Below, piece by piece: positions 1 through 64,000 of a stretch of 64,000 nt of DNA. Position numbers and translations under genes: made by a program. The stretch is taken from sequence record OP870143.1, one strand, 5' to 3'. Every line of letters begins with the position of its first letter. Position 1 is the stretch's first letter. The notes under the pieces were generated by a model that searched no databases, was not told the origin of the DNA, and worked only from the letters and a program-made list of their open reading frames with translations. The DNA comes from Escherichia phage vB_Eco_F22.

Positions 1-210
1 TTTCTCTGCCATAGTAGATACATATGAGTTAAGCATACCTACTGCTTTAGTAGCAGTACCAAATGTATCTGCAACAGTAGTAGCAGCAGAGTTAACAGTA
101 CCAAGTAAAGTTCCTGCGGTCATACGTACAGTAGCGGTAGTAGTCATGATGATAGCTCCAATAGTTGATGATAGGACGACATGTCCATAGGTTGCGGAGC
201 AACGTGTAAC
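1..210. repeat. Left arm of a perfect 210-bp inverted repeat (reverse complement of 304..513); truncated by the window edge
   Basis: Manual reverse-complement comparison: 1..210 matches 304..513 exactly, symmetry axis near 257; the 93-bp spacer is itself partly palindromic. Confidence 0.85.
191..203 (-). promoter_or_regulatory. Mirror copy of the 311..323 hairpin motif on the minus strand, directing leftward
   Basis: Lies in the left arm of the inverted repeat; a minus-strand ATG at 145..147 opens a reading frame running off the window start. Confidence 0.3.
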
Positions 211-303
211 ATGTAAAGTGGTGTGGCAGGGGCTACACCCTTACACTCAACCATCCCCCCCGGTATGTTGACCGTGTAGCCACTACCCTACCCCACCTTA
301 CAC

Positions 304-513
304 GTTACACGTTGCTCCGCAACCTATGGACATGTCGTCCTATCATCAACTATTGGAGCTATCATCATGACTACTACCGCTACTGTACGTATGACCGCAG
401 GAACTTTACTTGGTACTGTTAACTCTGCTGCTACTACTGTTGCAGATACATTTGGTACTGCTACTAAAGCAGTAGGTATGCTTAACTCATATGTATCTAC
501 TATGGCAGAGAAA
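304..513. repeat. Right arm of the 210-bp inverted repeat; contains a hairpin motif and the first 49 codons of ORF 367..690
   Basis: Exact reverse complement of 1..210. Confidence 0.85.
311..323 (+). promoter_or_regulatory. Hairpin motif GTTGC-TCC-GCAAC upstream of ORF 367..690; candidate virion-RNAP-type hairpin promoter
   Basis: 5-bp GC-rich stem with 3-nt TCC loop, followed by ctatGGAc; same family as motifs at 929, 1242 and 5106. Confidence 0.4.
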
Positions 514-690
514 CAAGCCATTCGTACTAAATTAGAAATGCATACATTCGTAAACAAATTAGCTGAAGAAACAGCTATGAACGAGACTATGCGTAAGAAA
601 AGTATTGAAGAATTCTGCAAAGATTCAGAGAACGCTCGTATCTATAACGCAGAATATTCAAAAGTAATCGACATCCTGACTAAAGACTAA
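367..690 (+). CDS. Hypothetical early protein (107 aa); 5' 147 nt duplicated in inverted orientation at 1..147
   Basis: ORF with GGAG 9 nt upstream of ATG; followed by a terminator hairpin. Confidence 0.5.
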   Translation: MTTTATVRMTAGTLLGTVNSAATTVADTFGTATKAVGMLNSYVSTMAEKQAIRTKLEMHTFVNKLAEETAMNETMRKKSIEEFCKDSENARIYNAEYSKVIDILTKD

Positions 691-696
691 ATCAAT

Positions 697-724
697 AGGA
701 GGCTCTTCGGAGTCTCCTTTTATA
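697..724 (+). terminator. Intrinsic terminator
   Basis: Hairpin AGGAGGCTC-TTCG-GAGTCTCCT followed by TTTTAT. Confidence 0.6.
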
Positions 725-777
725 AACATTAGATAGATAGTCTATTTTGCATAAAAAGTTAAAAGAGAATCCTACTA

Positions 778-924
778 TGAGCAAACTAGAAAACGCATTT
801 ATCCTGACTGTTTGTGTACTTGCAATTGTTACTTTGGTTTCCATTCACATTGGGAAACCTCTGGTAAATACTGACTATGGCAATGGTCAAAAAGTAAAAT
901 CCATCTTGCTAATGGATAAGTAAA
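778..924 (+). CDS. Possible small hydrophobic protein (about 48 aa), not in the ORF track
   Basis: ATG..TAA read by eye in the 690-976 gap; predicted single hydrophobic helix; weak RBS. Confidence 0.2.
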
Positions 925-928
925 AACC

Positions 929-941
929 GCTGTTCCACAGC
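929..941 (+). promoter_or_regulatory. Hairpin motif GCTGT-TCC-ACAGC upstream of ORF 976..1191
   Basis: 5-bp stem, TCC loop, followed by ttacGGATa; member of the repeated motif family. Confidence 0.4.
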
Positions 942-975
942 TTACGGATACATTTCAACCAATTAGGAGACATCC

Positions 976-1191
976 ATGCACACAGAAAATATCCGTATAA
1001 TTGAGAATTGCTTTAGTAACAAACCAGTAGACCTCAGCAACGCAAGAAGGTCTACTGATAAAGAGTATGGAGAGTTTCTATCCTTACTCGATGAGTATCG
1101 TATGCAAGGGCATGTTGAATTACATGCCTATCTGCATAACTCAGGCTACTTCATGGATAAACTGGAATCTGAAACAGGCTGTCCATTCTAA
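976..1191 (+). CDS. Hypothetical early protein (71 aa)
   Basis: ORF with AGGAG RBS; downstream of hairpin motif at 929. Confidence 0.5.
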   Translation: MHTENIRIIENCFSNKPVDLSNARRSTDKEYGEFLSLLDEYRMQGHVELHAYLHNSGYFMDKLESETGCPF

Positions 1192-1241
1192 GTAAACAAT
1201 TCCCTCTTAAGAGGGAATCAGCACAGAGTGCTTAAAACCAG

Positions 1242-1256
1242 GGCTGCTCCGCAGCC
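1242..1256 (+). promoter_or_regulatory. Hairpin motif GGCTGC-TCC-GCAGCC upstream of ORF 1269..1751
   Basis: 6-bp stem, TCC loop, followed by tttGGATgattt then ATG at 1269. Confidence 0.45.
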
Positions 1257-1268
1257 TTTGGATGATTT

Positions 1269-1751
1269 ATGCATCCACTAATCATTGAAATCTTAAGTCT
1301 TTTCTTGGGTTTAGTCACCGACGGACAAACCCATAAATCAAACAATCATTTATCTGGAGAGTACAAAATGTCTATTCAAAAATTCACTTTCGGTCAATCT
1401 AACCCTGCTGCTACCACTGAAACTAAAACTGCTAAGCCTAAAGCTCAGTTCTGGTTGAACATTGGTTATATTGCTAATGAAGGCTCTGAAGATGAGAAGT
1501 TCATCTCTCTGCCTACTGGTATTCCACTGGATACTCAGGAACCACTGCCTACTAATAGCAGCAATGCTGACTTCCGTGCTATGCGTTGTGCACAGAACGA
1601 CTTGCTGGAACAGTTAATCGAATATGCTCAGAACCTGGAACCAGGTGAAGAAGGTATCATTAACCTGCAAGTTCAACTACGTCGTGTGAAAGCAGAGGCT
1701 GCTGACATCCCAGCAGACGAGAATAAATATGCTCGTAAACTGACTTTCTAA
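1269..1751 (+). CDS. Hypothetical early protein (160 aa; alternative start at 1368 with GGAG RBS gives 127 aa)
   Basis: ORF immediately downstream of hairpin motif at 1242; terminator hairpin at 1761..1790. Confidence 0.5.
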
Positions 1752-1760
1752 TCAACAACT

Positions 1761-1790
1761 GGACTCCCTTCGGGGAGTCTTTTATTTTTA
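1761..1790 (+). terminator. Intrinsic terminator
   Basis: Hairpin GGACTCCC-TTCG-GGGAGTC followed by TTTTATTTTT. Confidence 0.7.
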
Positions 1791-1894
1791 ACTAGACGAT
1801 AAGCTATTTCTACTTTTTGAGTATCTTTAGACGAAGGGTACTGAAACAGTAACCAGATAGATATAGATTTATATTAGATGAAGGAGTAACCACT

Positions 1895-2191
1895 ATGCGT
1901 ACATTATGTAACCGTTATAACTCACAAAAGTTGATTGATACGTTGCAACCTTGGGGTAGTAAGATGTCACTGAATGCTCGCTGGCAGGTAAGTGTAAAAG
2001 ATGAAAACGGTCACTGCTATGACCACTTCTTTGTAACTAAACCTACTCGTAAACAAATCCGTAAACTTCACAATGTGCAAAAACATTACCTATCACAAAA
2101 ATGCTATGAGTGTGGTAAGAGAATAGAACTAGGTAAAGAATTTACTTTTGATGATCTCAACTATGCTCACACTGACTGCCTGAAAGGATAA
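1895..2191 (+). CDS. Hypothetical Cys/His-rich protein (98 aa), possible zinc-binding
   Basis: ORF with GGAG RBS; HCYDH...CYECGKR...HTDC pattern. Confidence 0.5.
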   Translation: MRTLCNRYNSQKLIDTLQPWGSKMSLNARWQVSVKDENGHCYDHFFVTKPTRKQIRKLHNVQKHYLSQKCYECGKRIELGKEFTFDDLNYAHTDCLKG

Positions 2192-2195
2192 GACT

Positions 2196-2414
2196 ATGCT
2201 GGACTTCATTGCGTTTGTAATACTCTGCTCTGTACTGTATCGCCTGCGTGGTTACATCCTCAATGGAGCCAAGTGGGTAAGAACTAAGTTGGTACTTATC
2301 TGTAAGTTACCCGTTGTATTCGTTAAGTGTCTGTTTGCTTCCATAGTAGCTAAAGAAGTTCGTAAGCAACTCTGGGCTAAAGAAGCAGAAGAGTTTGCAA
2401 AGAGGAACCAGTGA
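2196..2414 (+). CDS. Hypothetical small protein (72 aa) with hydrophobic N-terminus
   Basis: ORF closely following the previous gene. Confidence 0.4.
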   Translation: MLDFIAFVILCSVLYRLRGYILNGAKWVRTKLVLICKLPVVFVKCLFASIVAKEVRKQLWAKEAEEFAKRNQ

Positions 2415-2584
2415 TATTCACTAACATTGAGGATGCCATTGAAGAATGTATCTTCCGTAGATATCACACTGGAGTACAGAAGCGACACTATGGTGTTGTA
2501 CAGCTCAATGGTTATCAAATGGCTGTAAGAATTGTACGTAACAATAAACCTTTTAACTTTATGTGGAGTACTAAACATGCGTAA
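2411..2584 (+). CDS. Possible small protein (about 57 aa, GTG start overlapping the upstream stop)
   Basis: Read by eye; not in the ORF track; weak support. Confidence 0.2.
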   Translation: MIFTNIEDAIEECIFRRYHTGVQKRHYGVVQLNGYQMAVRIVRNNKPFNFMWSTKHA

Positions 2585-2706
2585 GTCATTAATCATGGGA
2601 ACCAAAGCTGACGTACAGAAGATGAAAGAGCGTCTGGCTGCTAAGCAACAGACATCTGAACCAGTACGTAAGATTGTTACCTTCAACCATCCGTGCATAA
2701 AATAGT
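2578..2706 (+). CDS. Possible small protein (about 42 aa)
   Basis: ATG with GGAG about 10 nt upstream; ends just before terminator hairpin at 2708. Confidence 0.25.
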
Positions 2707-2707
2707 A

Positions 2708-2745
2708 AGGAGTCCTCCAATAGGAGGCTCCTATTTTTTATTTTT
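2708..2745 (+). terminator. Intrinsic terminator
   Basis: Imperfect hairpin AAGGAGTCCTCC/AGGAGGCTCCT followed by T-rich run. Confidence 0.55.
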
Positions 2746-2782
2746 GAATAGTTAGTTATGTATTTAAATAGGAGAAAGAGCC

Positions 2783-3097
2783 TTGAATGAAATAGTATGT
2801 ATACTTCCTCACTTAGCTAAAGTAGCTGACAGGAATATACGGGTACATTTACCCTTCCCATTAAGTAATCCATTCACTCGTAATGAAAGAACCACAGTAG
2901 AAGATATAGAGGTAGCTTATGAGGCTTATCTTCGTAATCGTCTTATTAGTGGTGACAAATTAATTACAGCAGAGATGGAAAGGATTGCATCCTTTGTCAC
3001 AGATAGTACTAAGAAACCTGTTGGTTTAATTGGTACTGAATCTGATGTTAACGTTATTCGTAAAATATTAATGGAGGCTTTAGGTGAACAACCTTAG
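2783..3097 (+). CDS. Hypothetical protein (104 aa; TTG start in track)
   Basis: ORF with AGGAG upstream. Confidence 0.45.
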   Translation: MNEIVCILPHLAKVADRNIRVHLPFPLSNPFTRNERTTVEDIEVAYEAYLRNRLISGDKLITAEMERIASFVTDSTKKPVGLIGTESDVNVIRKILMEALGEQP

Positions 3098-5386: not shown

Positions 5387-6205
5387 ATGTACTCATCAAT
5401 AGAACATCAGAAGCAGCTTGAAGTCCTATTCAATAAAAATCAATTACTGCCTCGCATGAGGAAGGAATTCGAGGACTCCAAAGAAATTGACTTTAAGGCA
5501 TTCGCTGCCTATTTAGAAATTGATTATAAGCTGCTCATTGATGCAATGGTGCAGATTGCCCTACATAAACGTGCTGACATCCAGACTATGATTGGCTCTC
5601 TCATGAGTCACTCAGATGATGCTCAGTACATCGCTGACTGTCTATATAAGATGGCAGAGAATGACTGCTTCAACTATGACCCTACCATCGACAAATTCGG
5701 TGTTATCTATGAGATTAGTGAAGATGTTCAGATGGAACTGGAAGCATTCCAGTATCCATTACCTATCGTAAGTGCTCCTAAGCCTGTTCTGTGTAACCGT
5801 GATACAGGTTACTACGAAAGCAGAGGCAGCATCATCCTCAAGAAGAATCATCATGAAATGGACGTCTGCCTTGACCACATCAACCGTATGAACAATCAAC
5901 GTCTCTGTATTAACTGGGACGTTGCCAACTATGTAAAAGACTCTCGTCCTAACATGGATAAACCCAAAGAGGGGGAAACCCGTCAGGACTATGAGAAACG
6001 TGTTAAAGCCTTTGAGAAGTACAGTCGTACTGCTAAGGAAGTAATGGAGTTAGTAACTCAAGAAGGCAATAACTTCTCACTAGCACATAAGTACGATAAG
6101 AGGGGCAGAACCTATGCCTGTGGATACCATATCAATTTTCAAGGGACTTCATATAACAAGGCAGTGATTGAATTTGCTGATAAGGAGCTGGTAAACGATG
6201 ATTAA
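5387..6205 (+). CDS. Phage RNA polymerase II small subunit (N4 gp15-like)
   Basis: 272 aa, immediately upstream of the catalytic subunit; size and position match the N4 RNAPII heterodimer. Confidence 0.5.
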   Translation: MYSSIEHQKQLEVLFNKNQLLPRMRKEFEDSKEIDFKAFAAYLEIDYKLLIDAMVQIALHKRADIQTMIGSLMSHSDDAQYIADCLYKMAENDCFNYDPTIDKFGVIYEISEDVQMELEAFQYPLPIVSAPKPVLCNRDTGYYESRGSIILKKNHHEMDVCLDHINRMNNQRLCINWDVANYVKDSRPNMDKPKEGETRQDYEKRVKAFEKYSRTAKEVMELVTQEGNNFSLAHKYDKRGRTYACGYHINFQGTSYNKAVIEFADKELVNDD

Positions 6206-6643: not shown

Positions 6644-7861
6644 ATGCAACTGTTAACTGCCCGTGAATACCTGAAAGTAGATGTCGCTAACAACTATGGC
6701 TTAGATAAAAAGACATGGGATGAACGTATTAGCTGGTTCGATGAGAACGAAGCTAATCTGCTCAATCTGGTAGATGAAGCTGAAGAATCTGCACTGTTCT
6801 ATGCTGGTGTAAACGCATGGAAAGATATGAAAGCTGGTAAGCCTATTGGTTATGCCGTAGCTCTGGATGCTACATCATCTGGCTTACAGTTACTGGCTTG
6901 CCTGACTGGTGACCGTTCTGCTGCTGAACTGTGTAACGTAGTTAACTACATGGGCAAGAATGGTAAGCCATTACGTCGTGATGCTTATACAGTTATCTAT
7001 CATAAGATGCTGGACATCCTTGGTGAAGCATCTCGTATTAAACGTAGTGACACCAAGCAGGCAGTTATGACTGCATTCTATGGTTCAGAAGCTAAACCTA
7101 AAGAAGTATTCGGTGAAGGTATCCGTCTCAAGACTTTTGAGAATGTAATGGAAACTGTTGCTAGTGGACCTTGGGCATTGAACAAGTTCTTACTGCAATG
7201 TGGTAACCCAGACGCTAACCGTTATGTATGGGTATTGCCTGACAACTTCCATGCTGTCATTAAAGTTATGGTTCCTGAAGTACAGACTGTTAACTTCTTA
7301 GGTAAGCCATTCGACATCACTCGTATGGTCCAAGGTACTGAAGAGAAGACCCGTATGCTCTCTGCTAACATCACCCACTCTATTGATGGGATGGTAGTAC
7401 GTGAGATGCTGCGTCGTTGTAACTTCAACATGAACCAGGTGAACTATATTAAGTCCCTCTGTGAGGGAACCAGTGAATACATGGTTGGCTCTGATGATAA
7501 CTATGAAATGGTTAACACACTGTGGTCTAACTATGAGAAGTCGGGATTCCTGTCTACCCGTATCTTTGATTATCTGGACTCTGAAACAATTGCATTGGTT
7601 GATACAGATGTAATCATGGCTATGCTCAATACCATGCCTAAGAAACCATTCCCTGTAATGACCGTACACGACTGCTTCCGTTGTCATCCTAACTACGGTA
7701 ATGACCTGCGTCGTCAGTACAATCAGATTCTGTCTGACATTGCTAAGAGTGACCTACTGGGCTTCATCCTGTCTCAGGTACTGGGACAAGAGTTCTCTGC
7801 TGGTAAGCTGGATGACAGCCTTTGGCAGGACATCCTTGAAACAGATTATGCATTAAGTTAA
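6644..7861 (+). CDS. Phage RNA polymerase II catalytic subunit (T7-like single-subunit RNAP palm; N4 gp16-like)
   Basis: ALDATSSGLQ (motif A), RSDTKQAVMTAFYGSEAKPKEVFG (motif B, close to T7 RSVTKRSVMTLAYGSKEFG), TVHDCF (motif C); terminator at 7869. Confidence 0.8.
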   Translation: MQLLTAREYLKVDVANNYGLDKKTWDERISWFDENEANLLNLVDEAEESALFYAGVNAWKDMKAGKPIGYAVALDATSSGLQLLACLTGDRSAAELCNVVNYMGKNGKPLRRDAYTVIYHKMLDILGEASRIKRSDTKQAVMTAFYGSEAKPKEVFGEGIRLKTFENVMETVASGPWALNKFLLQCGNPDANRYVWVLPDNFHAVIKVMVPEVQTVNFLGKPFDITRMVQGTEEKTRMLSANITHSIDGMVVREMLRRCNFNMNQVNYIKSLCEGTSEYMVGSDDNYEMVNTLWSNYEKSGFLSTRIFDYLDSETIALVDTDVIMAMLNTMPKKPFPVMTVHDCFRCHPNYGNDLRRQYNQILSDIAKSDLLGFILSQVLGQEFSAGKLDDSLWQDILETDYALS

Positions 7862-8177: not shown

Positions 8178-9011
8178 ATGCCAACCCTAAAGATTGCGTT
8201 TAATAAAACTACCAACGTTGCTACCGTGCTTGATTCAGGTGGCAGTGTTCCAGGTGGTTCCGTGGAAGTAGGTACTTTTGAACATCCAGATGCCACTTAC
8301 CCTGATAGCTTAGTTATCTATCACGGTGTTCGTGACCTGTTGTATAAACGTTCTGCTAAAAACCCTGCTGAAGAAGGCTTCTGGCCTGACAACATCGTGG
8401 ATATGCAATCGGTCACTATCGACATGCAAGCTACTCCACGACTGACTGTTGCTACCAAACTGCCTCGTGTAGTCTCTGCCATCGAAGGAGTAGATGTTAA
8501 CTGGCATATTGATGTAGCAGGTGGTAAAGCACCATTTACTTATAAGTGGCAATTCAAAGCTGATACTGCTGGTGCAGTATTCACTGATATTGATTCTGGT
8601 GATAACGCATCTGCTATCACTGCAACATTGACCCTTAGTAACGTAACAGCTGCTTCTGCCGGTACTTATAAAGTGATTGTTACTGATGCTAATGGAACCA
8701 CGGTAGAAGATACCTCGTTGCTGGCTGTAGGTTACTACGAAGCAAGTTCACTGGTAGCTACTCCTACTTCACTGGCTCTGTCTGTTGCTGAAGATCTCGC
8801 CGCTGGCAAGACTGTAACCATTGCTGCTATGCCTGTTGGTTCATCTGCTGGTACTTTGTCTATCAAGACTGCTCCAGATTCTGCCCGTGCTACAGCTACC
8901 ATTGCTGGTAACGTACTGACAGTTAAACCTGTGGCTGCTGGTGATGCTACTTCTGTTGTAGTTACCAACGGTACTGTCGATGTAACCATCGCTGTTACTG
9001 TTGCAGAGTAA
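8178..9011 (+). CDS. Ig-like domain protein, possible capsid decoration protein (N4 gp17-like)
   Basis: TYKWQF...TLTLSNVTAASAGTYKVIVTDANGTT resembles Ig-like/Big domain strands; position after the RNAPII genes matches N4 gp17. Confidence 0.45.
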   Translation: MPTLKIAFNKTTNVATVLDSGGSVPGGSVEVGTFEHPDATYPDSLVIYHGVRDLLYKRSAKNPAEEGFWPDNIVDMQSVTIDMQATPRLTVATKLPRVVSAIEGVDVNWHIDVAGGKAPFTYKWQFKADTAGAVFTDIDSGDNASAITATLTLSNVTAASAGTYKVIVTDANGTTVEDTSLLAVGYYEASSLVATPTSLALSVAEDLAAGKTVTIAAMPVGSSAGTLSIKTAPDSARATATIAGNVLTVKPVAAGDATSVVVTNGTVDVTIAVTVAE

Positions 9012-12438: not shown

Positions 12439-12944
12439 TGGTTGTTAATGGTAATTCTCTATATCGCTCATCTCAGTTGCTGGATGTTCCAGACCATAAG
12501 GTATCTGAACATGGTGTAAGCTATGGATTAGGTGAAGCTGGCTACGATATTCGTATCAAACAGGACATTACCTTCTATCACTTATTTGGGTTGATTCCAA
12601 TGGTGAAGGTCGTTGATGGAAATCAAGTATCACGCCATTTCGGTAAGTTCACATTGGCTTCAGCAATTGAGAAGTTCAACATGTCCCCTTCCTGTGTAGC
12701 TATCGTTCACGATAAGTCTACATGGGCAAGACGTGCATTATCAGTGTTCAATACCGTAATAGAACCAGGATGGAAAGGGTATTTGACTCTTGAACTGGTC
12801 TATCATGGTCGTAAGAAACTACATATCCCGGCTGGTGCTGGGATAGCTCAAGTATTATTTCATCTGGTTCAGGAACCTGCTAATTACAACGGCAAGTATC
12901 AGAACCAGGAAAATCAACCAGTAGCTGCAAGAAGCAGTAAATAA
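12438..12944 (+). CDS. dcd: dCTP deaminase / dUTPase-superfamily enzyme
   Basis: GEAGYDIRI, KSTWARRAL, EPGWKGYLTLEL and GAGIAQVLFH motifs typical of the Dcd family. Confidence 0.65.
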   Translation: MVVNGNSLYRSSQLLDVPDHKVSEHGVSYGLGEAGYDIRIKQDITFYHLFGLIPMVKVVDGNQVSRHFGKFTLASAIEKFNMSPSCVAIVHDKSTWARRALSVFNTVIEPGWKGYLTLELVYHGRKKLHIPAGAGIAQVLFHLVQEPANYNGKYQNQENQPVAARSSK

Positions 12945-12953
12945 GGAAAACTC

Positions 12954-13163
12954 ATGTCAGTATTTCAAGTAACTCATGCAACCTCAGATGTACGTTTAAC
13001 CATTAATGCTGCAAATGTAGTTGCAGTGGAACAGATTCCACTGTCTGATTGCGCTCGTATTACACTTGTAAATGAAGGTACTTTGGATACCAAAGAAAGC
13101 TATCGTTCAGTACGTAATTACCTGAAGAAAGCTCTTGCTCCTGCAAGCAAAGATGCTGAGTAA
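12954..13163 (+). CDS. Hypothetical protein (69 aa)
   Basis: ORF followed by terminator-like hairpin. Confidence 0.45.
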   Translation: MSVFQVTHATSDVRLTINAANVVAVEQIPLSDCARITLVNEGTLDTKESYRSVRNYLKKALAPASKDAE

Positions 13164-18978: not shown

Positions 18979-21024
18979 ATGAAAATCGAATTGATTTCTA
19001 TCATCGCACTGGCAGTTGACAGTCGAAACCTCACACTGTGGAAGCCAGATGGCTCCACGGTTGTATATCCACAGAGTGACCCACGGGTTGCTCGTATTGT
19101 ATCTGAAGCACAGACTAAAGGTCTGGGCACTATCCATGACCAAATAGAAGTAAACATTGCACCAGAAGTAGAGTTACGTATTGAATATCTGGAAGCAGAG
19201 AAGAACACCAACGGATTCGTCCGTTTCTTCAAGGTAGCTAAGGCTAAGCTAAAAGAGTTCTTCGAGGACGGTACAAGTAACCAGCCAGCTCGTATCATTT
19301 CAGATATTAAGCTGGGTAATCCTATTAAGACATTAGTATCTAAAGCTATGGATACCTTCCTGGCTGTTCAGGCTAATGAACCAGAAGTAACAGTAGCAGA
19401 TGGTTGCTATGACAAACGTGACAATCTGATGTGGGTTACTGGTTGGGACAAAGACCATAACCATCTTGCACTGGTTCGTTTTATTAACGACGTACTGGGT
19501 TGGGGTTATGACCATACTAATCGCATCCTTGCACGGGAATGGCCTATTGCAATTCGTGCGGTATCCGATGATGAAATGGGTGAGTTTGCTAAACAAGCTC
19601 AGAATATCAAAGGCGTACACGTTGTATTTACCAATCGTGAAGAAACACCACTGCCTTATGTGGAAGTGGTTAAAACTACTAACCAGGATAAGCTGGCTGC
19701 TGCTTCAGAGAAGCTGGCTGCATTAGGTGCTATCAGTACTGATGATGCTAACTTCCACACTGATGTGAAGGAAGATGAGGTAGTTGTTGCTGTTACCAAC
19801 AATGGGGTTATCCCTGGGGTTGAGAACCTGCAACGTCACCTGCGTCAGTCTGCCAAGCTGAAAGACTACAAGGGCTTTACCAAGTTCCTTGAGCGTCTGG
19901 CCCCGGTTATTAAAGACCGTCTGCACTCAGTGGAAGACCTGATGAAGTTCATGGAAACTGCTGAACTGCCTATCGCTGATGATGGCTCCATCCTGTTCCT
20001 GAAACGACTTAAGTTCAGGAGTACAGAAGATGGTAAACGTGTATTCGTTGACTGTCACTCAGGCAACATCCGTCAGTGGGTAGGCTGTAAAGTACAGGTA
20101 CGAGAAGACCTGGTAGACCCTGACCGTCGTCAGGACTGCTCCAATGGTCTGCACGTAGCATCCATGAGTTACATCCGTACCTTCGGCGGTAACGTAACTA
20201 TCCTTGGTAAAGTAGCACCAGAAGATGTATTTGCTGTTCCTGAGTACAACACTAATAAGATGCGTGTAGCTGCGTATCACATTATTGCTGAACTACCAGA
20301 AGAAGAACGTTGCAACGTTAACAATGGCATCTATCTGTCTAAGACAGAAGTAGGTAAGAAGTTACTTAATGATGCCATCGTTGGGAACCATAGCTCACCT
20401 ACCACACTTGTTATGGTTGGTGGTCACTATGGTACTAACCTCAAATACACTAATCTCTCATCTGGTTTTGTAGAACAATTCCGTACAGTTGCTAATAAAG
20501 AAGCACTGAATATGGAAGAGTCACTGAATGAAGCTGTAGCCGCTGAACCAGTGAAGGCTACTGACCTTAAACCTGTTGTTAAGAAGGCTCCAACTGTGAA
20601 AGAACAAATTCAGGAACTCCTTGGTGAGTTCTTATCTGCATCTACTATGGAAGATAAGTTAGCTGCTGCTGACTTATTGGTAGAGTTACGTGGCAAAGCT
20701 CGTAAGCCTTGGGCTGCTCTAGGTGTTTGTAGTTCTGCTGTAGATGCTATTGCTGCTGTACGTAGTACTCGTATTCCTGTTCCAAAGCCTGAACCAGTGA
20801 AGAAAGCTAAGGCTGTCCGTTCGGCTGCTGCTACTAAAGTAGCTCCGTCCGGTAAACACGCTGATAACCTGCGTAGCATCCTGAACGATACGTCATATTC
20901 TGACTATCAGAAAGGCCATGCTCTGCAAGACTATAAGCGTCATGCTAAGAAGTCGTTCACTGCAATGGGTCTGACTGAAGAAGAAGCTAACTTAGCTACC
21001 AAACTGGTCAAAGCTGCTAAGTAA
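18979..21024 (+). CDS. Hypothetical protein, possible rIIB-like partner (681 aa, Ala/Lys-rich C-terminus)
   Basis: Large ORF immediately downstream of the rIIA-like gene; no motif verified. Confidence 0.35.
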   Translation: MKIELISIIALAVDSRNLTLWKPDGSTVVYPQSDPRVARIVSEAQTKGLGTIHDQIEVNIAPEVELRIEYLEAEKNTNGFVRFFKVAKAKLKEFFEDGTSNQPARIISDIKLGNPIKTLVSKAMDTFLAVQANEPEVTVADGCYDKRDNLMWVTGWDKDHNHLALVRFINDVLGWGYDHTNRILAREWPIAIRAVSDDEMGEFAKQAQNIKGVHVVFTNREETPLPYVEVVKTTNQDKLAAASEKLAALGAISTDDANFHTDVKEDEVVVAVTNNGVIPGVENLQRHLRQSAKLKDYKGFTKFLERLAPVIKDRLHSVEDLMKFMETAELPIADDGSILFLKRLKFRSTEDGKRVFVDCHSGNIRQWVGCKVQVREDLVDPDRRQDCSNGLHVASMSYIRTFGGNVTILGKVAPEDVFAVPEYNTNKMRVAAYHIIAELPEEERCNVNNGIYLSKTEVGKKLLNDAIVGNHSSPTTLVMVGGHYGTNLKYTNLSSGFVEQFRTVANKEALNMEESLNEAVAAEPVKATDLKPVVKKAPTVKEQIQELLGEFLSASTMEDKLAAADLLVELRGKARKPWAALGVCSSAVDAIAAVRSTRIPVPKPEPVKKAKAVRSAAATKVAPSGKHADNLRSILNDTSYSDYQKGHALQDYKRHAKKSFTAMGLTEEEANLATKLVKAAK

Positions 21025-21086
21025 TAGCCTGTTCAAATGCCCTCACTTATAATAAAGTGAGGGTAAATTTGAAGAGGAAATGTACT

Positions 21087-21482
21087 ATGAGTAGTGTATA
21101 TCGTGTAAACCGTAAGGCTACTGATGAAGACATCATTCGAATGAATGCTGTTGGATTGTCTCTGGCAACCATTGCTAAAACATTGGGTGTTCACCCAACA
21201 ACCGTGACCTTACGGTTACGTTCTTTAAACATTGAACCAGCCGACACACGTCGGACGTTCATGGAGAATGTACTCCGTCCATTACCAACCCATGTGGCAG
21301 ATTGGCTATCAGAACAAGTTGGTCCTGCTTATGAGATTCGTTCATATGTAAGGGACTTGATTCTGGAGGCATATAATAATCGCCACCTTAACCAAGAGAG
21401 TGAGCATGACAAGTTCATCCGTTTGTACGCTGGAAAGAACCGAAGCCTGGTTCAAGAAAGCAGTACCGAATCCGACGAGTAA
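21087..21482 (+). CDS. Putative HTH DNA-binding protein (track ORF 21057..21482)
   Basis: LSLATIAKTLGVHPTTV helix-turn-helix-like segment; GAGGAA RBS before ATG 21087. Confidence 0.45.
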   Translation: MSSVYRVNRKATDEDIIRMNAVGLSLATIAKTLGVHPTTVTLRLRSLNIEPADTRRTFMENVLRPLPTHVADWLSEQVGPAYEIRSYVRDLILEAYNNRHLNQESEHDKFIRLYAGKNRSLVQESSTESDE

Positions 21483-21858
21483 GAACATTAGTACCCAGGT
21501 GGGCTGTCACCTGGAAGAAGTAGCAGAGATGCTTAATGCCCTCACTAACGCTGACCCAGAGTTAGCTAGTAAGATGGGCTTCCTAAGTGAAGCCATTGAC
21601 CACGTAGGTAACCTCATCAAAAAGAATGGGGGTATTGTGGTCAAAGACCGTGTGGAACTGTTGGATGCTCTGGCTGATCAGATTGTTACAGCAACTGGCA
21701 TCGGTACTTTCCTTGGGATGAATGTCCCTGGAGCATTGGCTGAAGTCAATCGCTCAAACTATTCTAAGTTCGAAGATGGAGAACCCATCTTCAATGAGAA
21801 CAAGAAAGTCATGAAGGGGAAAGACTATACGCCACCAGACCTGAGTAAATTTATCTGA
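21400..21858 (+). CDS. MazG-like NTP pyrophosphohydrolase candidate (start uncertain; overlaps upstream gene by 83 nt)
   Basis: HLEEVAEM and ELLDALADQIVTATGIG resemble MazG EExxE and helix motifs. Confidence 0.4.
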   Translation: MSMTSSSVCTLERTEAWFKKAVPNPTSKNISTQVGCHLEEVAEMLNALTNADPELASKMGFLSEAIDHVGNLIKKNGGIVVKDRVELLDALADQIVTATGIGTFLGMNVPGALAEVNRSNYSKFEDGEPIFNENKKVMKGKDYTPPDLSKFI

Positions 21859-21865
21859 GGTATAT

Positions 21866-21997
21866 ATGACTGAAGATTTTCTGGCATGGTTTGATAAGAA
21901 TTTCCCTGTACATCTTTGGCCTTCCGAAGAAGAACGAGAGGAAATTAAAACATACACATGGCTCGCTTGGCGTGATGCTAAAAGAGTAAATATTTAA
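21866..21997 (+). CDS. Possible small protein (43 aa)
   Basis: ATG with GAGG RBS; ends before terminator at 22001; not in the ORF track. Confidence 0.25.
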   Translation: MTEDFLAWFDKNFPVHLWPSEEEREEIKTYTWLAWRDAKRVNI

Positions 21998-22000
21998 AAA

Positions 22001-22024
22001 TAACCCTCTACGGAGGGTTTTTTA
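22001..22024 (+). terminator. Intrinsic terminator upstream of the helicase gene
   Basis: Hairpin AACCCTC-TACG-GAGGGTT followed by TTTTTAC. Confidence 0.7.
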
Positions 22025-33060: not shown

Positions 33061-33231
33061 ATGAACAAATTTACTATTCACTGGCTCAATGGAAAGGTTA
33101 GTTCTTTCATGGGTGGAGAACCTGCTGAAGGAAACAAAGCATTCCACATTGATTCAGAAGGCTGCAAAATCTTAATACCATATGCTTGGTATAAAGATGG
33201 TGAAGTTGAAGCATTAAAAAAGAGTAGTTAA
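33061..33231 (+). CDS. Possible small protein (about 56 aa) upstream of the structured non-coding region
   Basis: ATG..TAA read by eye; not in the ORF track. Confidence 0.25.
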   Translation: MNKFTIHWLNGKVSSFMGGEPAEGNKAFHIDSEGCKILIPYAWYKDGEVEALKKSS

Positions 33232-33999
33232 TATCGTGAAGGGTTCTGTCAGAATCCTTTGAGATAGGAACTCCTATCATAACCTTTCTTAACTTAATCT
33301 TTGCCGTATGGCACTGACGCTAGGGGTGGCCCCCCATCCGTCAGACAGACTATTTTAAGAATGGGTTATCTCAGAAAATGTAAAGCAACATTCGGGTTAA
33401 TCAATGGCCTCTCCTATAGAGGCCATTTCTGAATCTTAGGCTATATCCCAAAGGTTAATATCTTTGGGATAAGGCTTCAGATCCCTTATCAAACTAACCG
33501 CTCAATGTTGAGCATTTTAATCACATAAGCCCCTATATGGGCTGGGTTAAATGTCGGATAGCATAGCTACCTACAGCATCGAATTGTTAGGTCTTACATG
33601 CAATATAGGGTATAAAGGGAGGACTCGTCCCCTCCCTCCTATTATGACATCCTATCAATGAGTACACTTCAAGTGGTAGGCCTGCCGCTCTTGAAATTCA
33701 TCTGCAAAGCTGGAAGTGTACTCTTTGATAGTTTTCGTAAGCGATTATGCGGTTTTTTAGAAACGAACCAATAACATAAATGCAAACGATGATGTTGTTC
33801 TGATGGCAGCCTAATAAGCCAAGCGTCAGTCAGGAGTGAGTCGTCCTGATTATCAAACGACCGTGGAGTACTCCCGTCCATGTATTAGAAACGGGGGACC
33901 AATTACCAGTTGCACGAGATGGCTTGACATGTTCAAGTTTGGACTAAGTGTGACACCGCTAGATTGGAGGGCTGCTGCGGTAAGCTATAGACTCCAACC

Positions 34000-34270
34000 G
34001 GAGGTTCGAATCCTTCACTGGTAACCAATTCAAAGTAGCACTGCATAGAACGCGAAAAGGTACAGCGACGTTAGCCATACGGTATTGTGAGGTTCGAGTC
34101 CTCACCTATGAGCAGTGACGACTGCAACAGTGCTACTCTGAATTGGAAGAATTAAGACGGGTCTGGTGAAGTAGATGGGGTTCGATTCCCCCAGGTGGAG
34201 TAATCCACTAGCGTGCTTGGTGCACGAATAAGACTTAATACTGGTGGTTCGATTCCATCCCCCGTTACCC
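34000..34270 (+). other. Four tRNA-like T-arm modules (GGTTCGAATCC, GGTTCGAGTCC, GGTTCGATTCC x2) that do not fold into canonical cloverleaves
   Basis: T-loop motifs spaced 88, 88 and 67 nt; module 1 is followed by ACTGGTA-A-CCA whose 7-nt complement TACCAGT lies about 107 nt upstream. Confidence 0.3.
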
Positions 34271-34461
34271 AAAGTCGCCAGGTACTTATGGCAAATGGGT
34301 AGTAACGAACTAGTCATTCGTCAAACGCCCACCTAATTACGAGTCAGCAAGAACGCCTTCATTTAAACTTAAACAAAAAAGCTTAACGCAATAATTATGT
34401 AGGGGTATGTAAGGATTGCGAAGAAGGAGCCAGTTAGAGCCTGGCATGACTCACCCATTAT

Positions 34462-34535
34462 GTCCACTTAGCTTAGACTGGGAAAGCAACCGACTAATAA
34501 TCGGAAGGTCACTGGTTCAAATCCAGTAGTGGACA
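34462..34535 (+). tRNA. tRNA gene (74 nt); anticodon loop CTAATAA, anticodon tentatively AAT; CCA not encoded
   Basis: Manual cloverleaf: acceptor GTCCACT/AGTGGAC (7 bp), D-stem GCTT/AAGC with GG in loop, 4-bp anticodon stem CCGA/TCGG, T-arm ACTGG-TTCAAAT-CCAGT. Confidence 0.5.
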
Positions 34536-34769
34536 CCTATTCAGCAGTAACATAGTCCTGATTGCATAGCACTCTAAAGACAACACTGGTAAGACAGTCC
34601 AGTGGCTGCTAATGTATTGTTATTCCCCTCGACGGGAATTTCGCTAGTGAAGGTAACACTTAAAAATCCAAAGCTACGTCTTACTACTATCGGGCTATCA
34701 ACCCACGGTCGCTTAACCCTATAGCGGTAGTAGTTTGACGGCCTGCCTCGTTGACTGCGTTAAAGTCAC

Positions 34770-34811
34770 TAAGTCCCTCGGAGCCGTCACTCTGGGGGAC
34801 TTTTTTATTTG
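34770..34811 (+). terminator. Intrinsic terminator closing the structured non-coding region
   Basis: Stem AAGTCCC.../...GGGGACTT with about 15-nt loop followed by TTTTTTATTT. Confidence 0.5.
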
Positions 34812-34994
34812 AGAACTACTTATTGGACGATTCATATGATTGACCTAATCTTAACACCGTATGCCTATGAGGTAACGGATAACCAAGGACGTAAGTCTTT
34901 GGTGTTTGCAGGTAGCGTAGCCTATAACAACGCAGTCATGTTTAAATACAAACTCAAACCACTCTATGAGGCTAATAATGGCAACAGTAAGTAA
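34809..34994 (+). CDS. Hypothetical small protein (61 aa; TTG start in track, ATG at 34836)
   Basis: ORF starting inside the T-run of the upstream terminator; weak RBS. Confidence 0.3.
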   Translation: MRTTYWTIHMIDLILTPYAYEVTDNQGRKSLVFAGSVAYNNAVMFKYKLKPLYEANNGNSK

Positions 34995-35358
34995 AGAATC
35001 AATCGAAGCTAAGATTAAGAGCGTCTACTATTTCAACGGTGCTGATGCAGTAAAGTCTGCCTTCGTTAACCCTTCTGCACTTCCGGCAGACGATTTGTCT
35101 AACCTGGGCCTGGTAACCTACTGTATTATCATCCTGGAAAACGGCTTCAAAGTTGAAGGTGTATCTGCCTGTGTTGACCCGACCATCTATGATGAGCAGA
35201 AAGGTCGTCAGTATGCATATGAAAACGCATTCAATAAGATTTGGGAAATAGAGGGTTACCTGCTGCGTCAGGCACTGCATGAGAAAGAGGAGACTGCTAA
35301 GGCTCTGGCTTCCTTTGCAGAAAACAACACCTGTGATGGTGGTGGTTGCACCATTTAA
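34978..35358 (+). CDS. Hypothetical protein (track ORF 34966..35358; GAGG RBS favours ATG 34978)
   Basis: ORF; terminator-like hairpin at about 35440. Confidence 0.45.
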   Translation: MATVSKESIEAKIKSVYYFNGADAVKSAFVNPSALPADDLSNLGLVTYCIIILENGFKVEGVSACVDPTIYDEQKGRQYAYENAFNKIWEIEGYLLRQALHEKEETAKALASFAENNTCDGGGCTI

Positions 35359-35476
35359 CAAACAGGTATATGGTAGTTTTTACCGAAAGGTACTGAACTA
35401 CCTGTCATGTGGTAAGGCTCTAGAAGCCAAAACAAAACAAGCCCTCCTAGTGAGGGCTTTATCATTTGAGGTAGTT

Positions 35477-35965
35477 ATGTCAGAAGAAATTAAAGTTCAC
35501 TTCACCAACTACATTGGAACCAAGTGTGTAAATGGTTTCAAGATGAACAAGGAAACATATTGCAAACTTCGTGGCTGGGATGTGCCTGCTAATGAAGACC
35601 CATTAGAAGTAGGTTACCTAGTAGAATACCCGGATTCTAAACCTAACCATGAGCAATTCCGTGGTTATATTAGCTGGTCACCGAGGGCTGCATTTGAGGC
35701 TGCATATCATGATGTAGATAAAGGCTGTAGCTTTGGTCATGCAGTAGAACTTATAAAACTAGGTCACAGACTGACCCGTAAAGGCTGGAACGGTAAGGGA
35801 ATGTATATCACCCTAGTATCTGGTGAAAATTGGGCTATGGATAAACATGAGAATACCATATGTGAGAAACGGGATTGGTTGGGCATAAAAACTGTTGATG
35901 ACCAGTTTATGCCTTGGGTTCCATCCCAATCGGATGTATTAGCCGAAGACTGGATAATTCTATAG
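35477..35965 (+). CDS. Two-domain protein with C-terminal DUF2829/Tad2-like domain (candidate anti-defense)
   Basis: VELIKLGHRLTRKGWNGKGMYITL resembles the DUF2829 signature; GAGG RBS before ATG 35477; track ORF 35279 overlaps upstream gene. Confidence 0.45.
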   Translation: MSEEIKVHFTNYIGTKCVNGFKMNKETYCKLRGWDVPANEDPLEVGYLVEYPDSKPNHEQFRGYISWSPRAAFEAAYHDVDKGCSFGHAVELIKLGHRLTRKGWNGKGMYITLVSGENWAMDKHENTICEKRDWLGIKTVDDQFMPWVPSQSDVLAEDWIIL

Positions 35966-35973
35966 GAAACTAT

Positions 35974-36267
35974 ATGGAACTCTTTAAGAAAGGGCAGCTT
36001 ATACCAAAGCGTATTGGTGGATTGCATGTTCATCGTAAGGCAAGACATCGTTTAACCTTTGGTTGTGATGTACAAATTGATGGTAACAATTGGATTGCCG
36101 TACCAGATACAGGAATTGCAATGGTTCACTGTAAGAAGTTAGGTATTCGTAGAAACAATGGTACTTATCAAAATGTACATGCTGATTTTGTAGATATTCA
36201 TTTTGAAGCCAACAGGATTGATTATGTAATCAAGACTGAACGAAAAATTCTTGTAGTTAAGAAGTAA
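35974..36267 (+). CDS. Hypothetical protein (track ORF 35914..36267, trimmed to ATG with AGGA RBS)
   Basis: Last + strand ORF before the convergent terminator. Confidence 0.4.
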   Translation: MELFKKGQLIPKRIGGLHVHRKARHRLTFGCDVQIDGNNWIAVPDTGIAMVHCKKLGIRRNNGTYQNVHADFVDIHFEANRIDYVIKTERKILVVKK

Positions 36268-63956: not shown

Positions 63957-64000
63957 ATTACCATATTGATGATTCAGGATACGGTACGCCCCTGGTGCAA

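Follow-up and report, generated by a model that had tools for sequence, protein, structure and literature searches.

A large palindrome at the left edge of an N4-like coliphage sequence is probably a foldback copy of the physical genome end

Early promoters, gp1 and the palindrome

We analysed 64,000 nt of Escherichia phage vB_Eco_F22 (OP870143.1); this whole stretch is referred to below as the window. Homology places the window in Gamaleyavirus, as a G7C-like member of the N4-like coliphages (Schitoviridae). The genome must extend about 8 kb past position 64000, and the window stops short of its right end. The features at the left edge are as follows.

1-216, minus strand: left arm, probable foldback copy; reverse complement of 298-513, exact over 1-210 and 212-216
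1-147, minus strand: truncated mirrored gp1, codons 1-49; reverse complement of 367-513, cut by the window edge
184-203, minus strand: mirrored copy of promoter P1; hairpin at 191-203 and conserved downstream motif to 184, predicted to fire leftward off the window
217-222, minus strand: bases beyond the mapped top-strand 5' end (223/224); putative native 3' extension of the bottom strand
217-297, no strand assigned: single-copy centre, the last ~81 nt of the natural genome end; conserved among relatives, and the nucleating stem and loop in the snap-back model
223-625, plus strand: predicted direct terminal repeat, left copy, from homology to Mimir124 and IME11; encloses the spacer and the right arm
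298-513, plus strand: right arm, natural sequence and putative template of the copy; carries P1, the start of gp1 and two tandem TTACACG units (298-311)
311-330, plus strand: early promoter P1, predicted for the virion RNA polymerase; 5-bp stem and 3-nt loop
367-690, plus strand: gp1, the first early gene, of the N4 Gp1 family (Pfam PF26891, Phage_N4_Gp1); the annotation of the G7C gp1 notes similarity to N4 gp1

The promoters recognised by the N4 virion RNA polymerase follow a defined set of rules, namely a stem of 5-7 bp, a 3-nt loop (with a purine as the central template-strand base), -10G, -12A and +1C (PMC4496689). The template strand of P1 reads 5'-GTTGC GGA GCAAC-3'. Its loop, 5'-GGA-3', has the central purine (-11) at position 317, between -10G and -12A; the start site (+1) is predicted at 328, with a G on the top strand and a C on the template. 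With all of the listed determinants present, the hairpin is predicted to be an N4-type early promoter of the virion RNA polymerase. The motif TGYTCCRCANCYTWYGGA matched at four sites in the window, compared with 0.01 expected by chance. Three matches are on the plus strand (313-330, 931-948 and 1245-1262), and the one on the minus strand (184-201) lies in the left arm. N4 has three early promoters (P1-P3), and the window likewise carries three natural copies within its first 1.3 kb.

Matches to the window were found in 83 phage records, the best of which was phage E20 (OP745616.1), with 99.9% identity over window 293-3000. Across the first 50 kb of the E20 record, the identity was 88-99% and mosaic. 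We therefore rejected the idea that the window is E20 itself and regard it as a related but separate isolate. Searches with the exact proteins of 5387-6205, 6644-7861 and 8178-9011 gave no recorded match, and neither E. coli genomes nor plasmids contained one.

The preliminary description of this DNA had reported a perfect 210-bp inverted repeat at the left edge, each arm of which carried a hairpin and the first 49 codons of an early gene. These points were confirmed. First, positions 1-210 are the exact reverse complement of 304-513. In addition, the hairpin GTTGC-TCC-GCAAC is present at 311-323 and, mirrored, at 191-203, and 147 nt from the start of the ORF at 367-690 occur in both arms. A repeat finder extended the arms to 1-224 and 290-513 with 99% complementarity; across these extended arms only positions 211, 217 and 222 are non-complementary, and 11 of the 14 positions of 211-224 pair with 290-303. 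When folded as a single strand, 1-513 reached -294.8 kcal/mol, compared with -62.8 +/- 4.8 kcal/mol for shuffles (z = -48.5), and a fold so far below the shuffles excludes chance.

The palindrome is symmetrical about position 257, and its register pairs position i with 514-i. The arms had been described as separated by a 93-bp spacer. The arms stand, although the uncopied centre is narrower (217-297, 81 nt) because 211-216 forms part of the copied arm, in which 211 is mismatched. The window has an A at that position, where a faithful copy would give a G, and this is the sole mismatch within 1-216. We guess that the start of the window is also the start of the contig.

Relatives and the physical left end

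The match between the window and all of its relatives stopped exactly at 216|217, with agreement rightwards and none leftwards. The informative records are those that were assembled through the collapsed repeat, in which the right-hand unique region runs directly into the conserved block. The usual join of the group at 217 is right-end sequence ...GTGTAACTGT|AGTGG-like. The right end of E20 reads ...CATAGCTATGTGTAACTGT|AGTGGTGTGGCAGGGGCTACACCC (...CATAGCTATGTGTAACTGT|AGTGG...) and is unrelated to the left arm. Right-end sequence also lies left of 217 in five further phage records (pSb-1, ZQ2, IME11, PGN829.1 and UE-M6), as well as in ten independent ENA/Logan contigs (metagenome or SRA) with an identical gp1. 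In the relatives, the sequence upstream of 217 is conserved and equal in length.

The left arm was searched for in the same records and beyond. The reverse complement of the gp1 start occurred in none of the ten ENA/Logan contigs. None of the 83 related phage records spanned window 120-300, and the palindrome was present in none of them. The 35-mer across the junction (196-230, exact) was absent from IMG/VR, from the JGI metagenome contigs and from the GTDB genome contigs. The generic pattern of a reverse promoter followed by the terminal block gave no match in IMG/VR, which is a weak negative given only 8 Gamaleyavirus contigs there. Since the relatives, the independent contigs and the junction searches all lacked the left arm, we conclude from these comparisons that 1-216 is not the natural sequence upstream of the left end in this group of phages. 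Another candidate was that the left arm is diverged natural upstream sequence, so that the whole would be a long imperfect natural palindrome. This was rejected, as the local alignment was at the level of shuffles (168 of 500 shuffles reached its score).

The position of the breakpoint was compared with the mapped genome ends of the group. Position 1 of the G7C record corresponds to window 224 and position 1 of the Mimir124 record to window 223; the ends of G7C were checked by Sanger run-off and those of Mimir124 by PhageTerm (PMC11640937). The read-start pile-ups published for IME11 begin with GTGGCTGGGG... (240 reads), TGTGGC... (180), TGGC... (102) and GGTGT... (82) (PMC3896407). They map, in that order, to window 223, 222, 224 and 220. 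The N4 record starts with TGGTGGGGCTACACCCC, which aligns at about window 225. Therefore, the top-strand 5' end in these genomes lies at window 220-225, as mapped in G7C, Mimir124 and IME11 and in agreement with the start of the N4 record.

As to the terminal repeat, the Mimir124 record annotates a direct terminal repeat (DTR) at 1-403, and the corresponding paper gives 401 bp (PMC11640937). The DTR of IME11 is also 401 bp (PMC3896407), and its far-end read sequence matches window ~606-625. The predicted end of the repeat, at about 625, falls inside gp1 (367-690). A truncated 5' part of gp1, together with P1, is therefore expected at the right genome end too, as in IME11 and Mimir124. The left-end extension of N4 is 7 nt long. 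The ends of N4 are known to bear 3' single-stranded extensions (PMC3670811), and positions 217-222 of the window would represent a native bottom-strand 3' overhang of 6-7 nt with its terminus at 217.

The 216|217 junction is located 6-7 nt outside the mapped top-strand 5' ends of G7C (224) and Mimir124 (223), with the IME11 ends at 220-224. We infer a chance probability of roughly 2e-4 for a junction so close (7 nt or less) to a mapped physical end of a ~72-kb genome. This proximity bears on the possibility of a heritable inverted duplication of the P1/gp1 5' region, which would have replaced the usual pre-repeat sequence. It would then occupy the concatemer junction as well as the right end of the virion DNA, and the contig would begin within it. 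Such a duplication does not predict a breakpoint at most 7 nt from a mapped physical end, nor does it accord with the conserved, equal-length sequence upstream of 217 in all relatives. It would also place a strong early promoter so that it fires back into the genes of the right end. Moreover, a perfect palindrome of at least 210 bp is a substrate for SbcCD and survives poorly in E. coli, although an asymmetric centre of 81-93 nt would lessen this instability. Even with the palindrome present in the sequence as given, we consider a heritable duplication very improbable.

Probable self-primed copying at the terminus

The terminal block at 217-311 is near-invariant in about 20 distinct relatives and is recognisable in N4, in which positions 1-95 align with window 217-310. 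It includes a short natural inverted repeat, 218-224 / 290-296, that pairs at 6 of 7 bp (218-221 with 293-296 and 223-224 with 290-291). The inner stem of the centre is formed by GGCTACAC (231-238) and GTGTAGCC (274-281). The C tract at 255-261 is C7 here and is as long as C9 in relatives. G7C and one IMG/VR contig have GGGTGTAC in place of GTGTAGCC, with the same block still paired in a shifted register; a swap that keeps the pairing hints at a conserved structure.

The predicted folding of this terminus was examined on the bottom strand. The terminal 84 nt (217-300) folded at -19.6 kcal/mol (z = -3.3), and in the predicted fold the 3'-terminal bases pair with the 290-297 region. The fold of the equivalent N4 terminus was no better than that of shuffles, and for this reason we do not claim a conserved functional terminal hairpin. 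The dominant predicted fold pairs 220-223 with 294-297 (p ~0.9) and would yield a junction other than the observed one. The conformer with the register required by the junction (514-i) is predicted to be a minor one (~10%), and its outermost 3' base forms a T.G wobble. We therefore rejected the dominant terminal hairpin as the source of the junction: registers 517 and 519 give other junctions, and the observed one is reached only from register 514 with the end at 217.

The explanation that we favour, and hold to be probable, is that 1-216 is a foldback (snap-back, self-primed) copy made on the physical left end and lying outside the mature genome. The bottom strand would end at the left terminus in its native 3' extension, the last base of which would be 217. 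If the terminal ~100 nt became single-stranded, the 3' end could fold on the short inverted repeat (218-224 / 290-296), leaving 225-289 looped out. A DNA polymerase would then lengthen this 3' end with the same strand as template, copying from 298 towards the right. On the top strand, the outcome would be the reverse complement of 298 onwards added left of 217, with perfectly palindromic arms around an asymmetric centre present once, as is seen in the window. Reads from such foldback molecules would let the assembler push the contig ~216 nt past the real end.

An extension from 217 in the 514-i register reproduces positions 216 to 1 base for base, with the exception of 211. As in self-primed chimeras, the copy starts at the physical end, a short inverted repeat lies at the priming point, and the copy is absent from relatives and independent assemblies. 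Library preparation is known to yield chimeric reads nucleated at natural inverted repeats (PMC10908179, PMC13141652). The 216-nt extension appears comparable in length to a short read or insert, and an overrun of this size fits an origin in library preparation. DNA end-repair or amplification during library preparation is thus the most probable site of the event. Besides the minor register that it requires and the unremarkable fold of the N4 terminus, the explanation has further weak points. The mismatch at 211 is not predicted and needs a misincorporation of T opposite G, a cytosine deamination or a consensus error; it also hints that few founder molecules lie behind the contig end. In addition, the 3' extension of 6-7 nt is assigned to Gamaleyavirus by analogy.

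The same geometry could arise inside the infected cell. In that case, the left 3' extension would fold back and prime synthesis in infected cells to give inverted dimers, and the palindrome would be the head-to-head junction of a real replicative intermediate, molecules of which would have been part of the sequenced DNA. Here, too, the junction would fall at the native 3' end and the centre would be the asymmetric terminal ~81 nt. A passage in the IME11 paper, citing Ohmori 1988, states that N4 uses hairpin priming at a 3' terminus (PMC3896407). The terminal block is conserved from N4 to the G7C-like phages, and the retained overhang bases 217-222 suggest that extension began from an untrimmed native end. 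On the other hand, no such junction was found in the ten metagenome or SRA assemblies of close relatives, which could hold intracellular DNA, or in the 83 phage records. The copy runs for only about 216 nt, to what seems to be the contig start, and looks limited by fragment length. In addition, the mismatch at 211 suggests one or few founder molecules, and the N4 terminus has no significant fold. Foldback in the cell and foldback in vitro would produce identical sequences and are inseparable from the sequence alone. Weighing these points, we regard a library or assembly foldback chimera as the most likely source; a captured hairpin-primed replicative junction is less likely and, in our view, improbable.

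A purely computational origin was also weighed, either as a strand switch by the assembler or as the joining of the two strands through an overlooked hairpin or loop adapter (SMRTbell, loop adaptor) or in a nanopore template-complement read. The feature does lie at a contig edge, and inverted-repeat chimeras are common in long-read data (PMC13141652). However, an adapter or follow-on chimera is expected to be symmetrical about the physical end (about 217-224) and to have an adapter or nothing in its middle, whereas the palindrome is symmetrical about 257 and encloses 81 nt of natural sequence in a single copy. On these grounds, we rejected chimeras formed by adapters, by template-complement reads or by head-to-head ligation. 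Furthermore, a repeat of 6 of 7 bp is far below an assembly k-mer, so that strands would not be crossed without chimeric reads, and a computational duplicate would not bear the mismatch at 211. We therefore judge this origin to be scarcely credible.

Known systems and consequences for the record

The library snap-back chimeras described under the PDSM model (PMC10908179) and the nanopore inverted-repeat chimeras (PMC13141652) likewise consist of an inverted adjacent copy that arises from a short natural inverted repeat. They also share a partly single-stranded end, absence from the true genome and a position at an assembly edge. The difference is that the priming end in the window is the native phage terminus, with its 3' extension apparently kept, rather than a random shear end.

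To the right of the breakpoint, the window resembles other N4/G7C-like left ends. Positions 217-690 are typical, with the conserved block GGGGCTACACCC...CCCCACC. These left ends have three promoters with a GGA loop, gp1 as the first gene and a direct repeat, and the window has the same, with the repeat predicted to be about 403 bp. In contrast, N4-like genomes have direct terminal repeats, and none is described with an inverted copy left of the end.

Parvovirus dimer junctions and poxvirus concatemer junctions are palindromes of hairpin-primed replication. Like them, and like the junction that would follow from the hairpin priming mentioned for N4 in a passage of PMC3896407, the palindrome has the asymmetric centre of an unfolded terminal hairpin and carries head-to-head copies of the genome end on both flanks. 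Unlike them, its second copy is only about 216 nt and is known from sequence alone, and N4-like phages are packaged from direct-repeat concatemers. The protein-primed inverted terminal repeats (ITRs) of phi29 and PRD1 also place inverted identical sequence at a genome end. Genuine ITRs, however, are conserved and stand at opposite ends, whereas both arms here are at one end, 81-93 nt apart. We rejected genuine ITRs because both arms lie at one end and because the relatives have direct repeats and no palindrome.

Three origins had been proposed for the palindrome in the preliminary description. A foldback artefact formed on a true genome end holds up, and nothing supports a packaging or ITR-type element. 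The two transcription and translation starts said to diverge from the centre can indeed be read in the given sequence; the phage genome itself very probably lacks such a divergent pair. Most likely, the palindrome does not belong to the genome of the phage, and we recommend trimming the first ~216 nt. For quality control, 1-216 should not be annotated as a second promoter with a partial gp1, nor should it be scored as an ITR or as a signal of completeness. One by-product is of use. The breakpoint marks the physical left end to the base, and it appears to keep the native 3' extension (217-222), which is lost in ordinary end-polishing.

To our knowledge, the way in which N4-like phages begin replication at their ends has been little studied since the 1980s. 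Although we think it unlikely, the palindrome might be an in vivo head-to-head junction in which a G7C-like left 3' extension primed itself on the conserved terminal inverted repeat. If so, it would be direct sequence-level evidence of the hairpin-priming step long proposed for N4 replication, and it would fix the bottom-strand 3' terminus at 217 with an extension of 6-7 nt. If the junction occurs in the DNA of infected cells, it would inform the question of how replication starts at the ends of N4-like genomes.

Several observations concern the related records. In the record of phage CU10EC (PQ435408.1), a run of Ns is followed by a second promoter-P1/gp1 start at the terminal-repeat region, which is another sign of a hard-to-assemble genome end. 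The E20 record starts at window 293 and stops at window 419, and its two ends share an identical overlap of 127 nt. This looks like the k-mer overlap of an assembler in a circularised assembly rather than true termini. The divergence between the window and E20 is concentrated in patches at 12932-13155, 20763-22001 and 33133-35976, where short segments are 88-93% identical or unaligned amid long stretches of 96-99%. A CDS at 1076-1459 of the E20 record carries the label 'integrase'. The 127-aa genes at the equivalent place in related contigs match Pfam Phage_N4_Gp2, and to judge from them the label looks wrong. Finally, the window has a single tRNA-Ile gene with the anticodon AAT (34462-34537), and a tRNA-Ile is annotated at the corresponding position of E20.
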